In this document: piece by piece, positions 13,750-62,829 of the stretch
How positions within the stretch are numbered: position 1 is the stretch's first letter
Layout of the letters: each line of letters opens with the position of its first letter
Assembly (NCBI GenBank): GCA_030628945.1
Contig: DAOVPY010000004.1
Location: 1 to 62,829, forward strand
Origin: Candidatus Nealsonbacteria bacterium
GTDB lineage: Bacteria > Patescibacteriota > Minisyncoccia > Minisyncoccales > DAOVPY01
Reading direction: 5' to 3'
DNA: 62,829 nucleotides
Position numbers and translations under genes: made by a program
The notes under the pieces: model-generated
Databases searched by the model: none
The model's input: only the letters and a program-made list of their open reading frames with translations
What the model was told of the DNA's origin: nothing

Positions 13750-15127
13750 GTCCCCAGGGGATGGCGCCGGTGACTTTAACTTTCACGAATTTCCCGACTA
13801 AATCTTGTAACTTGTAACTTGTAACTTGTAACTTAATAGTTTTGTAATTTTTTGTTTTGCCGACTAACCAACCCTTTCGTTCGTATTCCAACCCGCCTCG
13901 CCTCGCCCGCGAGTCGGGCGAGGCGGGCAGAACTTCAACAATTTTTCCAATATATTTTTTATTATTTTCCAAAGCAATTTTCTTGAGGACTTTGGTCAAA
14001 TTTTTTTCTCTTGTCTTTTTTGCTTGCAAAGATACAGTATCTTTCATTTTGAACGCCGCGGTGCCCGAGCGAGGGGAATATTGAGCGATATAAGCCATAT
14101 CCGGCTTGATTTCTTTAAACAATTTGATTGTATTTTCAAATTGTTTTTTTGTTTCCCCGGGAAAGCCCACGATGACATCGGTAGAAAAAAAGACATTTGG
14201 AATTTTGCAGCGGATTTTTTTAATTAAATTTTTATATTGAGCCACGGTGTAGGGCCGGTTCATTTTTTTTAAAATCGCGGGGTCTCCGGACTGGACCGGC
14301 AAACTGATATATTTTGTCACCTTTTTACATTGAGCAATTGTCTCAATCAACTCGTTGGAAAAATCCTTGGGATGCGAAGAAGTAAACCTAATCCAAAACT
14401 CCCCTGGAATATCATTTATCATCCTTAATAATTTAGCAAAATTAACTACTCTCTTATTCACGCGAATAAGAGAGTGGTAGCTGTTGACGTTTTCGCCGAG
14501 AAGCCATATCTCCTTATACCCCTTTTTGACTAAATTTTTTACTTCTTTCAAAATGTCGTCTGTTGGTCTGGAAATTTCCACACCCCTGGTGTAGGGAACT
14601 ACGCAATAAGAGCAAAAGTTATTGCAGCCGATAATAATCGGAATGTAAGCCGAAAAATTGTTGCGATATTCTGGTTTGATTTTCAAGTAATTACAGTTTG
14701 AATGACAGAGACCTGTTCTCTGCCATTTAGCAGATTTACGGAGAACAGTTCTCCGTTGATTTACGGAGAACTGTTCTTTATTCCGCTCTTTTTTTAGGAA
14801 GTTTTTCCAATGGGGCAGGCTTTTAATGGATAAAATATAATCAAACCTTGTTTGAAATTTTTTCAAATCATATTCAAGAACACAGCCGGTTAATAAAATT
14901 TTTAGTTTGGGATTTTTTCTCTTTAATTTGATAAAATTTTTAATTTGGCCATAGACCCGGTCAACTGCTGATTGCCGAACGGAGCACATATTAACCACAA
15001 TCAAATCCGCCTCCCCCATTTTTGAACAGGATTTATAGCCGATTTTTTCCAAAACCGCTGCAATCCGCTCGCTGTCTGAAACATTGAGCTGGCAGCCATA
15101 GGTGATGATGAAATATTTTTTAGACAT
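13721..15127 (-). CDS. miaB: tRNA-i6A37 methylthiotransferase (radical SAM)
   Basis: TYGCQLN, NMCSVR, GCNNFCSYC, YSPRSGT, C-terminal TRAM domain. Confidence 0.93.
   Translation of the reverse strand: MSKKYFIITYGCQLNVSDSERIAAVLEKIGYKSCSKMGEADLIVVNMCSVRQSAVDRVYGQIKNFIKLKRKNPKLKILLTGCVLEYDLKKFQTRFDYILSIKSLPHWKNFLKKERNKEQFSVNQRRTVLRKSAKWQRTGLCHSNCNYLKIKPEYRNNFSAYIPIIIGCNNFCSYCVVPYTRGVEISRPTDDILKEVKNLVKKGYKEIWLLGENVNSYHSLIRVNKRVVNFAKLLRMINDIPGEFWIRFTSSHPKDFSNELIETIAQCKKVTKYISLPVQSGDPAILKKMNRPYTVAQYKNLIKKIRCKIPNVFFSTDVIVGFPGETKKQFENTIKLFKEIKPDMAYIAQYSPRSGTAAFKMKDTVSLQAKKTREKNLTKVLKKIALENNKKYIGKIVEVLPASPDSRARRGGLEYERKGWLVGKTKNYKTIKLQVTSYKLQDLVGKFVKVKVTGAIPWGLKGIFSKFC
13892..13927. repeat. 36-bp in-frame palindromic insertion in miaB
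   Basis: CCCGCCTCGCC...GGCGAGGCGGG; encodes PASPDSRARRGG; much more GC-rich than flanks. Confidence 0.75.
14706..14777. repeat. Cluster of CGGAGAAC(A/T)GTTCTCCG-type palindromes in-frame in miaB
   Basis: Copies at 14706-14722 (degenerate), 14739-14755 and 14764-14777 (truncated); same family as 54098-54143. Confidence 0.75.
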
Positions 15128-34703: not shown

Positions 34704-35638
34704 ATGTTAAATTATCTTGAAGATTTTCTTCTTCATATCCAAACAAATAACTATTCTTTAGAAACGCTTTATAATTATGAGCGGGATTTAAAGACATTTG
34801 AAAATTTTCTGAAAAAAGAAATAAAAATTCCTTTTGAGAAAATTACTAAAAAAACTATAGAACAATATAAGGCCTATTTAGTGTCTTGCGACCGCAAGAC
34901 CGCCATGGGCCAAAACCCAAGAAAAATCTAACTGCCGGCTCAATAAACCGCATTCTTTCAAGTTTGCGCCGATACCTGAAATACTTAATTAAAATGGACT
35001 ATAAAACCCCTATTGCTCCTGAAGCTATTGAACTCTTGCGGACAGAAAAAAAACATCCTCGGGTTTCAGGGTTTGAGGAAATAGTAAAATTAATCGAGTC
35101 ACCTGCTCAATTTGAGAAAAACAAAAAAGTCGGCCTTCGCAATCGGGCAATGTTAGAGGTGTTGTTTTCTACGGGAATGAGAATTTCTGAACTAATAAAT
35201 TTAAAAACCGTCCAAATTGATAAAACCGGCCGGGTTTTTATCAAAGGAAAAGGCAAGAAAGAAAGATTTGTTTATTTGACGCCCCGGGCTCAAAGACATA
35301 TTAAAAAATATCTGGAGATGCGTGGCGGAAGCGAGTCGCCTTATTTATTTATTCCCTACCGGGGAAAAAACATTCATCAGAAAGATAAAAAAATCTCCCC
35401 CAACTATTTAGAGGATAAAGTGAAGAAATATAGAGAATTATTGGGTTTCAATATTCCGATTTCGCCGCACTCAATTCGCCACGCCTTTGCGACTTATTTA
35501 GCGGAAAGCGGTGCTAATCCAGTTGCTATCCAAATTCTTTTAGGCCACGAATCCTTGGACACTACTACTCGCTATGTTCACGCTTCTGACCGCTACGCCG
35601 AAAAAATGCATCATAAATACCACCCCTTAAAAGAATGA
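34704..35638 (+). CDS. XerC/XerD-like tyrosine recombinase, split by a 1-nt frameshift near 34912-34926
   Basis: N-terminal SAM-like domain (TLYNYERDL); RNRAMLEVLFSTGMRISEL, GKGKKER, HSIRHAFAT, LGHESLDTTTRY. Confidence 0.88.
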
Positions 35639-50454: not shown

Positions 50455-52272
50455 ATGTCCAACCGCGTCACCAATGTAGTTGCTGCGATATTGCTTGCCG
50501 TAATGTTTGTTACGGCGGTTTTTAGCATAAAACACGATTCAACAACAATGGACGAACTCGCCCATCTGCCGGCCGGCTATTCTTATCTAACTCAAAAAGA
50601 TATGCGGCTCAATCCAGAACATCCGCCTCTGATAAAAGACCTTTCAGCCATTCCCCTGCTCTTTATTAAGGGACTAAACTTTCCTTCTGAAATCAAAGAA
50701 TGGAAGAGCGATGTCAACGGACAATGGGGATTTGGCTCTTATTTTCTGTATGAAGCCGGCAATCCGGCTGATAAAATGATTTTCTGGGACCGGCTGCCAA
50801 TGATTTTAATTTTAATTTTGCTCGGATTTTATATTTTTAAAGCCGCTCGGGAATTATTCGGAGCCCAAACAGCCCTGTTTTCCTTGTTTTTATTCTCTTT
50901 CTCCCCTACCTTCTTAGCTCACGGAAGATTGGTGACCACTGATGTCGGAGCCGCGGCCGGCATATTCATCGCCACTTATTATTTTCTTAAAACCCTTTCC
51001 AAGCCAACCAGGAAAAACATTCTTTTAGCCGGGATTTTTTTCGGCTTGGCGCAACTTTGCAAATTTTCAGTAATACTTTTGGGTCCTTTCTTTGTCTTTT
51101 TGATTTTAATTTGGTGGCTGATTAAATCCGGGAAAATAATGAAAACTTTAAAAATTTTAATTCTGGTTTTTACAATCGGCTTTCTTTTAATCGGAGCTGT
51201 CTATCAATATCATACCTGGAATTATCCACCCGAAAGACAAGTACAAGACACTAAAATTCTTTTGCCCGACTATTCTGATAACTTCATCAAGGGTTCTATA
51301 AAAAATTCTATTGTTTGGGCCGCTGATAAGCCAATTCTCCGTCCTTACGCCCATTATCTAACCGGTTTGGTTATGATTTTCAATCGAACCGCTTACGGGC
51401 ACACAACTTATTTCCTTGGCGAAATTTCCAACAAGGGATGGAAAAATTATTTTCCAATTGTCTACGCAATTAAAGAACCCTTAAGCTTTCATATTCTCAC
51501 CCTGATTGCCTTGCTTTATCTCGGTTGGCTGATTAAAAGACCTTGCTGGTTAAACGCTTTTCAAAGAATAAAAAATTGGATTAGAACGCACTTTATTGAA
51601 TTTGCCATGCTTGTTTTTATCGCTTTTTACTGGGGAGTAAGCTTGAAAACAGACCTGAATCTTGGAGCGCGCCACCTTTTGCCGATTTTTCCGTTTACTT
51701 TTATTTTAGTAAGCGCAACAATAATCAATTGGCTTCACCCTGTTAAATGCCGCGAAGCGGCAATTTCGCCAAAGGCGAAATTATTTAACAGGGTAGAAGG
51801 CCCTCTTTGGAGCAGAACAAAACACACTATTGTCTACGGCTTAATTTTCTTGCAAATTATTAGCGTTATGGCTGTTTTTCCTCATTTTTTAGCCTATTTT
51901 AACATCTTAGCGCGCGGTCCGGACAACGGTTATATCTATACCGTTGATTCCAACCTTGACTGGGGGCAGGACCTTAAACGATTAACAGAATGGACAGAAA
52001 AAAATAAAATTGATAAAATTTATCTTGATTATTTCGGAGGCGGAAAGCCGGAATACTACCTGAAAGAAAAATATGCCCCTTGGTGGGGCAATCGCGATTC
52101 GCGGGACTTTCCAAAAAATAATTATCTGGCTGTTTCAGCGACTCCTCTTCAAATAGGAAGAGGGACAGCGGCTTTGGAATTTGACCAACCTACCGGCCAT
52201 TATAAATGGCTTGATGAATATAAACTAATAACAAAAATCGGCTACTCAATCTTTATCTATTACATTGACTAA
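50455..52272 (+). CDS. ArnT/PMT-like (GT-C) membrane glycosyltransferase
   Basis: STTMDELAHLPAG, NPEHPPLIK, LVTTD, ARHLLP, DSNLDWGQDL; many TM helices. Confidence 0.88.
   Translation: MSNRVTNVVAAILLAVMFVTAVFSIKHDSTTMDELAHLPAGYSYLTQKDMRLNPEHPPLIKDLSAIPLLFIKGLNFPSEIKEWKSDVNGQWGFGSYFLYEAGNPADKMIFWDRLPMILILILLGFYIFKAARELFGAQTALFSLFLFSFSPTFLAHGRLVTTDVGAAAGIFIATYYFLKTLSKPTRKNILLAGIFFGLAQLCKFSVILLGPFFVFLILIWWLIKSGKIMKTLKILILVFTIGFLLIGAVYQYHTWNYPPERQVQDTKILLPDYSDNFIKGSIKNSIVWAADKPILRPYAHYLTGLVMIFNRTAYGHTTYFLGEISNKGWKNYFPIVYAIKEPLSFHILTLIALLYLGWLIKRPCWLNAFQRIKNWIRTHFIEFAMLVFIAFYWGVSLKTDLNLGARHLLPIFPFTFILVSATIINWLHPVKCREAAISPKAKLFNRVEGPLWSRTKHTIVYGLIFLQIISVMAVFPHFLAYFNILARGPDNGYIYTVDSNLDWGQDLKRLTEWTEKNKIDKIYLDYFGGGKPEYYLKEKYAPWWGNRDSRDFPKNNYLAVSATPLQIGRGTAALEFDQPTGHYKWLDEYKLITKIGYSIFIYYID
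51738..51793. repeat. 56-bp three-way-junction element in-frame in the GT-C gene
   Basis: CCCTGTTAAAT...ATTTAACAGGG with two inner hairpins; second copy at 61329-61384. Confidence 0.9.
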
Positions 52273-60576: not shown

Positions 60577-60891
60577 GTATCTTCCTTATTTGAAAACTGA
60601 TTATTAATTGCCAGCCAAGAATTGTCTTGGCTAATTAGTAATACTTGGCTTAATGTTTTACAACACTTACACCTGTATCCTATTAAGGTCGTGTTCTCCG
60701 ACCAGCCTAAGAGTCCTGATCTTGGGGTGGGCTTCGTGCTTAGATGCTTTCAGCTCTTATCCCTTCCCAACTTAGCTACCCAGCGATGCTCCTGGCGGAA
60801 CAACTGGTACACCAGAGGTTAGTTCAGTCCGATCCTCTCGTACAAGGACCAAATCCCCTCAAGACTCGACGCCTGCGGTAGATAGGGACCA

Positions 60892-60925
<34 letters not shown>

Positions 60926-60929
60926 TCCT

Positions 60930-60980
<51 letters not shown>

Positions 60981-60996
60981 AGAAGAGCCGACATCG

Positions 60997-61246
60997 CATT
61001 TTTCTATTATTTCTAATAGTATGGACTATATCTTCACCCCGCTTTCAGCGGGGGTTGGCGTATTATAACAGTTTAAACCTGCTATCCTTTCTTGCTAAAA
61101 TTTAGCAAGAAAAAGTCTCTACGGGGCGAAGCACATAGAATTCATGTACTCGCTTCCCACGGTGTTGTCAATGAGATTCCACCGTTATTAGCCAAATTTT
61201 TGGTATGGCATTACTGCCATAGCACCCCGATTTGTCGGTATATTTG
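60997..61246 (-). mobile_element. Group I intron at 23S position 2500 (no ORF, 250 nt)
   Basis: Interrupts GGCACCU/CGAUG; terminal G; P1 GCACCU pairs with GGGUGC giving the U-G pair; R CCCCGUAGAGACU and S AAGAUAUAGUC. Confidence 0.93.
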
Positions 61247-61328
61247 AGGTGCCGAACAGGGCCGTTGATGTGAACTCGCGGGCCCTACTAGCCTGTTCAA
61301 TCTTTTTTAAGATTAGACTATATCTTCA

Positions 61329-61384
61329 CCCTGTTAAATGCCGCTTCGCGGCAATTTTGCCAAAAGCAAAATTATTTAACAGGG
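61329..61384. repeat. 56-bp element occupying P8 of intron L2449
   Basis: CCCTGTTAAATGCCGCTTCGCGGCAATTTTGCCAAAAGCAAAATTATTTAACAGGG; homolog of 51738-51793. Confidence 0.9.
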
Positions 61385-61444
61385 GACGGCGTATCAGCAA
61401 GGTTTTACCTTACTCTGTCCGCTTATGGACAAGTCGTTACGGGG

Positions 61445-62038
61445 TCAAGAAGGAAGTTTGTAATTAAATTGAGAAAGTATATGACGTTTAACAATTACTT
61501 TTAATTTTTTTGCTTCTTTAGGAGGAAAATAAATCGCGTATCCTTTCTTTTTTTGTTTTACCCGACTCAAAATGTTGAATTTTTTCAACAAAGATTGAGA
61601 TGTAATTTTGGCTTCTTCTTCGCTAACATTTCCCAAATAAAGATAACTACAATAATCTCTTTGGCAGTAATATCCGTCATCCGTATACCAAACTGCAAGC
61701 ATTAGCGGTGTTAAATATTTTTCTAATTTTTCTGGAATTTTTTTCTTTCCTTCTGGATAGAAGATTTTTCTCAATTTACCAAGATAAGGAATAGATTGAG
61801 ATTGATGGCGCCAATAGCCATATGTTTTCTTAGAGATTGGATGAATTCTTTCTAAATATTTTGCTTTCCCTTGAAAGAGAGAATCAAGTTTTTTCACTTT
61901 CCATAGTAAGTATTCTTTTTGGTTTTTTCCATGTTCTAATCGAAGCCGAGAATTTTTTTCTCCAGTTTTTTGAAGATATCCATCTCCAAGAATTGTTCCA
62001 AAGAGAATTGATTTTTGTTCTCGCGATAAAGAAATCAT
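61445..62038 (-). CDS. Intron-encoded LAGLIDADG homing endonuclease (double motif)
   Basis: LFGTILGDGYL and LAVWYTDDGY motifs; lies inside intron L2449. Confidence 0.93.
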   Translation of the reverse strand: MISLSREQKSILFGTILGDGYLQKTGEKNSRLRLEHGKNQKEYLLWKVKKLDSLFQGKAKYLERIHPISKKTYGYWRHQSQSIPYLGKLRKIFYPEGKKKIPEKLEKYLTPLMLAVWYTDDGYYCQRDYCSYLYLGNVSEEEAKITSQSLLKKFNILSRVKQKKKGYAIYFPPKEAKKLKVIVKRHILSQFNYKLPS

Positions 62039-62829
62039 AAACTAAAACAAACTTCTTCCGACTTCCCACGGTATTACAAGAACTCTAAACCTTTTTCAAG
62101 GAAGACCGGTTCTCGCTTCACCGTTATAAGCCGTATTTATTACCTCACCTTACGGTGAGGAGGACAACAAACTCTTATTTCAGAGTCTATCCCCGGGGTA
62201 ACTTTTATCTGATAATCTCCTCCGGTTCTATCAACCGAAGTCGGTTCACTAAGTTCTGCTTTCGCAACAGCTCGACATATCCGTCTCGCTGTAAAGCTGG
62301 CTTTTGGCTTTGCCCGACATTTCCGATTTCCATCCGGAAATAGCCAACCTTTAAACGCCTCCATTACCTTTTGGGAGGCAAGTGCCCCACTTAAACTGAC
62401 CGGATAACACTGTTTCCCCGCTAAAAGCGGGGGTTAGAACCAAGAATTTAAAAGATGGGTGTTTCATTGACGACTCCTTCCCGACCGAAATCGGGAAATC
62501 AAAGTCTCCCCACTACGCTACGCATCTAAATTCAAAATCCAATGTCACCCTACAGTAAAGCTCCCGGGGTCTTTCCGTCTAGCCGTAGGTAACCGGCATC
62601 TTTACCGGTATTGCATTTTCACCGGGCTCCTCGTTGAGACAGTTTCCCAGTCGTTAAACCTTTCCTGCGGGCCGGAACTTACCCGGCAAGGGATTACGGT
62701 ACTTTAAGACAGTTATAGTTACTGCCGACGTTCACTGGCGCTTCAATCGCTCAGCCATCCCGCCCGAAGGCGGAAAGACCGGCAACATTAACGTTCCAGC
62801 ACTGGTCAGGTCTCAGCCCCTATACATCC

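Follow-up and report, generated by a model that had tools for sequence, protein, structure and literature searches.

The 62,829-nucleotide stretch of Candidatus Nealsonbacteria bacterium DNA analysed here (contig DAOVPY010000004.1 of GenBank assembly GCA_030628945.1; hereafter the window) carries two copies of a 56-nt palindrome. One copy is read in frame inside the gene of a membrane glycosyltransferase, and the other forms helix P8 of a group I intron in the 23S rRNA gene. Both belong to one family of tiny non-autonomous hairpin repeats, very probably a selfish mobile DNA that resembles the Rickettsia palindromic elements (RPEs) in its behaviour. The two copies of the window are as follows.

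51736..51795, plus strand: 60-nt palindromic unit, CA + CCCTGTTAAAT + GCCGC-GAA-GCGGC hairpin + AATTTCGCC-AAA-GGCGAAATT hairpin + ATTTAACAGGG + TA
61327..61386 (core 61329-61384), minus strand: second copy, the P8 of the intron, placed by Rfam alignment and by the P8 position of 13 homologous introns

A first-pass annotation of the window had described a shared 56-bp element with 11-bp inverted ends and a preceding CTTCA, and this description holds. The copies at 51738-51793 and 61329-61384 are identical at 50 of 56 positions (BLAST E = 3e-15 against the whole genome). Both open with CCCTGTTAAAT and close with ATTTAACAGGG, their 11-bp inverted ends are perfect, and CTTCA directly precedes each. 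The gene copy is CCCTGTTAAAT-GCCGCGAAGCGGC-AATTTCGCCAAAGGCGAAATT-ATTTAACAGGG and the intron copy is CCCTGTTAAAT-GCCGCTTCGCGGC-AATTTTGCCAAAAGCAAAATT-ATTTAACAGGG. The same annotation held that the differences largely preserve structure, and all six can now be accounted for: three invert the loop of the first hairpin (GAA versus TTC), two convert a C-G into a T-A pair in the second hairpin and are compensatory, and the last, G>A, opens the closing pair of the second hairpin. Judged by similarity, the two copies appear to have no specific link with one another, since other copies of the genome are closer to each. The best match of both is the copy at C9:19357 (95% for the gene copy and 93% for the intron copy), while they match each other at 90%.

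The genome comprises 825 kb in 17 contigs, of which the window is contig C13, and is estimated to be 100% complete. The genome-wide search that the annotation had proposed reveals a family rather than a pair: a two-arm search finds about 30 elements on 10 contigs, 35, 44, 56, 62 or 68 nt long and with one or two inner hairpins. Composition predicts 0.6 occurrences of the exact end 11-mer in the genome, where there are about 45, and chance is therefore excluded. The full unit is 60 nt and reads (C/T)A + CCCTGTTAAAT + one or two variable hairpins + ATTTAACAGGG + T(A/G). Conservation of the ends thus reaches two bases further on each side, and the inverted ends grow to 15 bp if one T·G / C·A position is allowed. 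The next bases outside the unit are usually TT and AA, as in TT/CA-CCCTGTTAAAT…ATTTAACAGGG-TA/AA or its reverse complement TT/TA…TG/AA (the slash marks the edge of the unit), and these canonical flanks are found at 13 of the 17 exact-end copies of the genome. The inner part of the element is present in both orientations relative to the slightly asymmetric ends. No target-site duplication was found: the TT and AA flanks are not direct repeats, and the filled and empty sites of the glycosyltransferase gene differ by a clean gain of 60 nt. A few arms stand alone, for example at C9:44493 and C9:44999 (same strand) and, as a left arm, at C17:158685. One copy (C4:30832-30887) lies 44 nt upstream of the 23S rRNA 5' end, and the copies at C9:22076-22110 and C3:154652-154707 precede tRNA genes by 5 nt and 22 nt. 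Because they adjoin these 5' ends, several copies probably belong to the precursor transcripts of stable RNAs.

At least 13 copies lie within long open reading frames (ORFs), and all of them are read in one frame as (I/V)HPVK…LFNRV(K); the 35-nt variants in ORFs read TPLNSAKGNLTG. According to Pfam, the coding hosts include MetRS, ribosomal protein S1 (two copies), TsaD, the NAD-dependent DNA ligase LigA, FtsZ and an amidase (GatA), together with S9, L23, sigma-70, a GT4 enzyme and the PMT_2/GT39 enzyme of the window. Just one of the six frames is open across the unit and its usual flank. Surviving copies in essential genes therefore add a fixed, uniform peptide of 20 residues at a permissive place on the protein surface, in the GT39 enzyme a loop that joins two helices. 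At the 5' end of rpsA (C9:7400-7527), two 62-nt copies stand in tandem, 4 nt apart and in frame at the N-terminus of S1. The coding host in the window is the following gene.

50455..52272, plus strand: GT-C fold glycosyltransferase, PMT_2/GT39, 605 aa (Pfam PF13231, E = 7e-16)

This gene has more than 2000 homologs, several of them named glycosyltransferase family 39. Its insert is exactly 60 nt, or 20 codons, between CTT (Leu) and GAA, and reads HPVKCREAAISPKAKLFNRV inside the ORF, in agreement with the in-frame reading of the first-pass annotation. A codon-level comparison gives TTA^AAA or CTG^AAA as the uninterrupted DNA of orthologs at this position, a site of the type TT^(A/G)A. The 158 aa downstream of the insert are still in frame and conserved. 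In the AlphaFold model (mean pLDDT, the predicted local distance difference test, 65.8), the insert residues 428-447 have a pLDDT below 50 and fall between helices 411-427 and 450-485; the model thus places the insert, with low confidence, in a loop between helices. Three orthologs (P0023, P0024 and P0004; L141:301-2127, L142:301-2118 and L143:301-2082) carry a shorter related palindrome (…ACCCCGTTAGAAAT…, with ends TAAACCCCGTTAGAAAT…ATTTCTAAACGGGGTAAA) in the same loop, five codons downstream. It is 12-14 codons long, in frame, reads (V/I)(N/S)P(V/L)RN…(N/S)(G/R)V, and looks like a sister family with similar ends. With a second palindrome only five codons away, the AT-rich Leu/Lys loop of the GT39 enzyme has been hit more than once.

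It is scarcely credible that the repeat is an artefact of assembly or that the peptide is ancestral in the GT39 enzyme. An assembly in 17 contigs can in principle contain misjoins, and we found no positive evidence of one. The chimera that the first-pass annotation had named as a way to overturn its reading is contradicted by the two copies themselves, whose flanks are unique and whose sequences disagree at 6 of 56 positions, and by the spread of about 30 copies over 10 contigs. The family is also present in independent assemblies, including a closed 639-kb Nealsonbacteria chromosome, and an intron copy of the related genome G085 recurs identically in a separate metagenome contig (L196). As for ancestry, the peptide is missing from 24 orthologs of the GT39 enzyme, whose DNA is uninterrupted at the site.

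The distribution of the element is patchy and wide. Of 41 genomes of this order, 6 have exact-end copies (this one included), and each of the 6 represents a different family. At least 119 contigs of GTDB species genomes hold exact-end copies, and their GTDB labels cover many phyla: Patescibacteria (many classes), Desulfobacterales, WOR-3, Omnitrophota, Cloacimonadota, Acidobacteriota, Bacteroidales and others. Searches for a phage or plasmid carrier gave no match in INPHARED or PLSDB and a match to 1 of 2.9 million IMG/VR contigs. In the literature, the end sequence was met only in unrelated primers and a single archaeal plasmid promoter. A role as a DNA-uptake sequence was rejected on reasoning alone, as about one copy per 18 kb and a spread across phyla do not fit a species-specific signal.

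The shape of the element is kept more strictly than its inner sequence. A gap-free alignment of 22 distinct 56-mers from this and other genomes has 11 invariant end pairs, and 11 of its 14 inner base pairs are changed on both sides. Pairing holds for 98.4% of the cells of this alignment and for at most 48.5% once the partners are slid. The former percentage is inflated, because the set was picked for pairing in the tested architecture (at least 13 of 14 pairs), a choice that does not affect how varied the compensatory pairs are. None of 500 shuffles reached the observed pairing. The single-stranded unit folds as a T- or Y-shaped three-way junction. Selection for shape would explain the covariation, and copying of one hairpin arm from the other would explain it equally well. 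The first-pass annotation had spoken of a structure-selected mobile mini-element that is tolerated in protein loops and RNA helices. The mobile and tolerated parts of this description are supported by the dispersed copies and by the empty orthologs and most related introns, and invariant ends with compensatory inner hairpins also favour a mobile element; structure-selected is one of two readings. The invariant ends and strongly conserved shape would also suit an immobile motif selected by the host, whose fold, in DNA or RNA, is bound by a host factor or serves in termination or stabilisation, as has been suggested for repetitive extragenic palindromic (REP) sequences and bacterial interspersed mosaic elements. 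The copies beside tRNA genes and the 23S rRNA gene point the same way. We consider such a motif very unlikely, because most copies are within coding regions of unrelated housekeeping genes and missing from their orthologs, the element is found in so few of the related genomes, and identical ends occur in many phyla. In the copies of this genome, no T run follows the stem of the element, which is unlike an intrinsic terminator.

The second copy of the window sits in an rRNA gene. The rRNA features of the window, all on the minus strand, are listed below.

60628..62829, minus strand: 3' part of the only 23S rRNA gene in the assembly, running off the contig end (Rfam LSU_rRNA_bacteria, 747 bits)
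61298..62188, minus strand: group I intron 1, 891 nt, after U2449 (E. coli numbering), with junctions GGGGAU/AGACUCUG and GAUUG/AACAGGC
61445..62038, minus strand: intact LAGLIDADG_2 homing endonuclease gene, 197 aa, in intron 1 upstream of P7/P3/P8 (Pfam PF03161, E = 3.9e-39)
61247..61297, minus strand: 23S exon between the introns, 51 nt, positions 2450-2500 (strand reading; LSU model segment match)
60997..61246, minus strand: group I intron 2, 250 nt, without an ORF, after U2500 (Rfam RF00028, 36 bits)

Each 23S exon exists once in the genome, and the gene has 1184 extra nt near the peptidyl-transferase centre. Position L2449 of intron 1 is the site of the yeast mitochondrial omega intron. 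The 5' exon of intron 1 ends in GGGGAU (U2449) at 62189, the intron has a terminal G, and the next exon begins with AACAGGC. The group I hallmarks are present: an exon-final U, the terminal G, a J8/7-P7 core UGAAGAUAUAGUC, and a P8 between J3/8 and J8/7. The assignment of the second copy to P8 of the L2449 intron, made in the first-pass annotation, is confirmed by the Rfam group I alignment, in which the arms of the element are P8, immediately before UGAAGAUAUAGUC, and by the position of P8 in 13 homologous introns. This P8 consists of an 11-bp stem and two capping hairpins, which together form a three-way junction (RNAfold -27.1 kcal/mol). Intron 2, separated from intron 1 by 51 nt, has a plain hairpin as P8, CCCCCGCUGAAAGCGGGG (61054-61037). 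We infer that the intron 1 ribozyme still splices, because the assembly has no other 23S gene and the peptidyl-transferase region is interrupted by both introns, so that ribosomes could be made only if both are spliced out.

Related introns make it possible to see what the element replaced. A pattern search in 301 genomes of the same order yielded 13 more L2449 introns, and all L2449 introns found read …ACGCCGNN-[P8]-UGAAGAUAUAGUC. In 12 of the 13, P8 is a hairpin of 17-38 nt with a covarying stem. About 11 of the 14 L2449 introns, with that of the window counted, start P8 with CCC and end it with GGG. Outside P8, the window intron is 88% identical to the intron of genome G216, whose plain P8 is UCCCGCUAAAAGCGGGA. 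The remaining related intron, that of G085, has the element as its P8, with the inner part reversed in orientation and partly decayed; outside P8, it matches the intron of G025, which has a plain P8, at 95% identity. The G085 intron falls within a clade of five (support 96/93) and the window intron falls outside that clade. The two element-bearing L2449 introns are thus not sisters, and P8 was replaced exactly either at least twice or by exchange between introns. Two further candidates, in G027 and G113, were rejected: the junction pattern matched with one mismatch and P8 was plain. The P8 sequences of two other L2449 introns, CCCGUUAAAAU-UAAG-AUUUUAGCGGG in L014 (G218) and CCCAAUUAAAUGUUGGG in L012 (G192), are like element arms without inner hairpins and may be decayed or minimal copies.

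The same arrangement is found at other rRNA sites. A scan of metagenomes for the junction ATTTAACAGGG+TGAAGATATAGTC returned 20 contigs, in which introns with the element as P8 are followed by the 3' exons AACAGGC (L2449), CGATGTCGGCUC/CGATGTCGGCTC (L2500) or CGUGAGACAG/CGTGAGACAG (L2593). The copies in P8 are 35-, 50- and 56-nt variants in both inner orientations. An L2500 intron on contig L182 with the element in P8 has flanks near-identical to those of window intron 2, which is its empty counterpart. Among the metagenome introns, variants one nucleotide apart form the P8 of an L2449 intron (L184) and of an L2500 intron (L197) from different samples, which suggests exchange of the P8 cassette between introns. 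The 301 genomes contain about 119 UGAAGAUAUAGUC sites, and the element is present at 2 of these, against about 0.004 expected by a rough estimate from copy density (29 copies in about 25 Mb). By these comparisons, P8 of rRNA group I introns is a recurrent host site for the element.

This recurrence raises the question of direction. The introns may be the source or vehicle of the family, with P8 and the start of J8/7 (CCC…GGG-UGAA) as its original home; homing introns would take it from lineage to lineage, and copies would escape from them into chromosomal sites. This is a broader form of the traffic from intron to gene named in the first-pass annotation. The ends of the element equal the native base of P8 plus UGAA, about half of 50 distinct such introns end P8 in GGG right before UGAAG, and the element is P8 at no fewer than three different rRNA sites. 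The L184 and L197 variants fit this account, as do the near-identical introns (95%) of G085 and G025, whose hosts belong to different families (f10 and f25). Phages and plasmids lack the element, so another vector would be needed, and in a published survey the insertion position of such introns was unrelated to host phylogeny (PMC11270868). We nevertheless consider introns unlikely as the source or main vehicle. The window copies are not mutual closest relatives, about 117 of the 119 introns in the sample are without the element, G003 (with six copies) and G024 have no intron of this motif, and the dispersed copies have a 5' TTYA that the introns lack. We know of no mechanism by which an intron would release its P8 hairpin alone. 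The first-pass annotation had offered direct intron-to-gene traffic as an alternative, and this is not supported, since each copy of the window has closer relatives elsewhere and G003 has its six copies without such an intron.

The element lands between TT and AA-like dinucleotides. Since P8 is a peripheral helix, its exchange leaves J3/8, J8/7 and the ribozyme core in register. The element may have reached P8 by insertion at UG^AA, with later loss of the old P8 by slippage (GUCCCC / GUACCC), or by replacement through shared end sequences. The native P8 context, C/CCC…GGG/UG/AAGAUAUAGUC, resembles the ends of the element, A/CCC…GGG/TG/AA. Movement may take place as folded single-stranded DNA that is cut in trans by an enzyme of the HUH/Y1 type or by another structure-specific enzyme. 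Three features, namely that the target is not duplicated, that the unit folds and that its inner part has two orientations, fit a single-strand, structure-specific mechanism best.

Candidate enzymes were sought in the genome. The autonomous partner with the same ends that the first-pass annotation had suggested looking for was not found in this genome, where the 11-mer is restricted to the short elements and a few solo arms, and no inverted 11-mer pairs at a spacing like that of insertion sequences (ISs) were seen there. The genome has three genes that resemble REP-associated tyrosine transposases (RAYTs) of the Y1 (HUH) type, at C12:13980-14465, C5:29321-30058 and C12:33255-33995. The REP hairpins that flank them are GGCAGAGACCTGTTCTCTGCC (13 copies, one at about 14704-14724 of the window), GTTTAAGGTAGAACCTTAAAC (6-8 copies) and TTCTAAACGGGC (2 copies). 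A Y1_Tnp match is found in 6 of 6 element-bearing genomes and in 21 of 41 overall (hypergeometric p ~0.012). At ten RAYT-like genes in other genomes, the 60-nt element is absent and other hairpins are present.

Hijacking of the Xer/dif system was also tried. In E. coli dif, the outer XerD arm is TGTTAAAT, identical to the inner 8 nt of the element ends. This candidate was rejected, as a fuzzy search of the genome and a search for a dif-like pattern in 41 genomes gave no more than the reversed-pattern control. Integrons use the core motifs GTTRRRY and RYYYAAC, which have a set order in attC. The ends of the element contain GTTAAAT and ATTTAAC, which fit these motifs, and the analogy with attC was rejected because the arms follow each other along the stem in the reverse of the attC order. 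The window itself encodes a tyrosine recombinase at 35078-35590 on the plus strand (Phage_integrase domain, E = 1.9e-35), and a second is encoded on C17; no link of these to the element was found.

Several observations weigh against the view that the repeat is a mobile element with a home in P8, in addition to the selection of the covariation set. Its mobility is something we infer and did not observe. Each RAYT-like gene of the genome is flanked by its own different REP family and never by the 60-nt element, and a RAYT tree does not cleanly separate the element-bearing genomes (37 of 500 shuffles are as clustered). For these two reasons a RAYT was rejected as the cognate enzyme and is kept as a weak lead. 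The TT…AA flanks are present at just 47 of 129 copies of other genomes. The 5' flank in the intron is GUC instead of TTYA, and no intermediate with the old P8 plus the element was found among the compared introns. The Rfam model RF00028 gives 28.3 bits for intron 1 and 36 for intron 2, against a gathering score of 50; the large ORF insert and 56-nt P8 of intron 1 depress its score.

A bolder proposal, which is rather improbable as it stands, is a nest of three layers: a 60-nt element in the P8 of a homing intron in an rRNA gene. P8 would be the preferred docking site because C/CCC…GGG/UG^AA mimics the ends and target of the element. The cassette would pass among L2449, L2500 and L2593 introns, and the introns would carry it across genera and perhaps phyla, as they home into universally conserved rRNA sites, and would seed chromosomal TT^AA sites. 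If true, the nest would explain how a gene-less sequence of 60 nt has identical ends in distant bacteria.

Whichever route the element takes, very small genomes tolerate a 60-nt parasite in their most essential genes, and each insertion supplies a ready-made peptide of 20 residues. The coding inserts amount to a natural experiment on how proteins evolve by insertion. The intron copies provide a second, parallel one, in which P8 has been swapped repeatedly for an unrelated three-way junction. In practice, the inserts distort protein alignments, depress intron-model scores (28 bits versus 50) and can mislead the annotation of candidate phyla radiation (CPR) genomes. Invariant ends in many phyla without an identifiable enzyme point to a mechanism of mobilisation that has not yet been described, for which the P8 hot spot provides a defined substrate.

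Several known systems share some of these properties. Miniature inverted-repeat transposable elements likewise have terminal inverted repeats, small size, many copies, no capacity to encode a transposase and occasional in-frame fusions with host genes. The 60-nt element differs from them in that it makes no target-site duplication and has no parent insertion sequence with the same ends in the genome; the examples known to us are all longer than 60 nt. For the peel and paste transposition of IS200/IS605 elements, which entails insertion without duplication beside a short specific target and recognition of hairpins in single-stranded DNA, the comparison gives a mixed picture: the 60-nt element shows no duplication and has a TT^AA-like target in this genome, TT…AA flanks are present at 47 of 129 copies elsewhere, and no cognate enzyme was found. 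REP sequences and REPINs, with their RAYTs, are tiny palindromic non-autonomous repeats that presumably move in the form of folded single strands and duplicate no target (PMC3116915, PMC3337134, PMC3733652). The 60-nt element, in contrast, flanks no RAYT gene, lacks the GTAG/CGTC tag and is mostly intragenic. Its ends do not change from phylum to phylum, whereas a given REP is specific to its lineage and to its RAYT.

Mitochondria also harbour hairpin elements, and such elements are known from organelle genes and introns. Examples include the GC clusters of yeast (PMC4478555), the repetitive hairpin elements of sponges (PMC2800124) and double-hairpin elements (as cited in PMC7218506), and the sponge report describes such elements as occurring in intergenic regions as well as inside protein and rRNA genes (PMC2800124). 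They too are small, mobile-looking (double) hairpins across a compact genome in which structure is kept more than sequence. They are organellar and lineage-restricted, whereas the element described here is found in bacteria of several phyla and has ends of invariant sequence.

Another close likeness is to RPEs, palindromic repeats of about 100-150 bp that are inserted in frame in Rickettsia genes (Ogata et al., 2000, as summarised in PMC10969869). As far as that summary goes, both are short palindromes in frame in unrelated housekeeping genes of a reduced genome, with a conserved peptide and an intact host gene, and the summary knows of no transposase associated with RPEs. By the same account, RPEs are confined to Rickettsia, whereas the unit here is 60 nt (variants 35-68 nt) and occurs in Patescibacteria and other phyla. 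The element is also set apart, by the description of RPEs given there, by its invariant 11-15-bp ends, its exchangeable inner hairpins and its additional use as a ribozyme helix.

A published survey covers group I introns with LAGLIDADG genes in the 23S rRNA of CPR bacteria and finds their position unrelated to host phylogeny (PMC11270868). Intron 1 of the window is an ordinary member of this group, with a homing endonuclease gene and a location in domain V, close to the peptidyl-transferase centre. The words 'palindrom', 'hairpin' and 'repeat' do not occur in that survey (PMC11270868), so the repeat nested in P8 seems not to have been noted before, and the literature searched contained no report of a hairpin element that repeatedly replaces P8 of group I introns. 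What is unexpected about this selfish DNA is how often P8 of an rRNA group I intron has become its host site.

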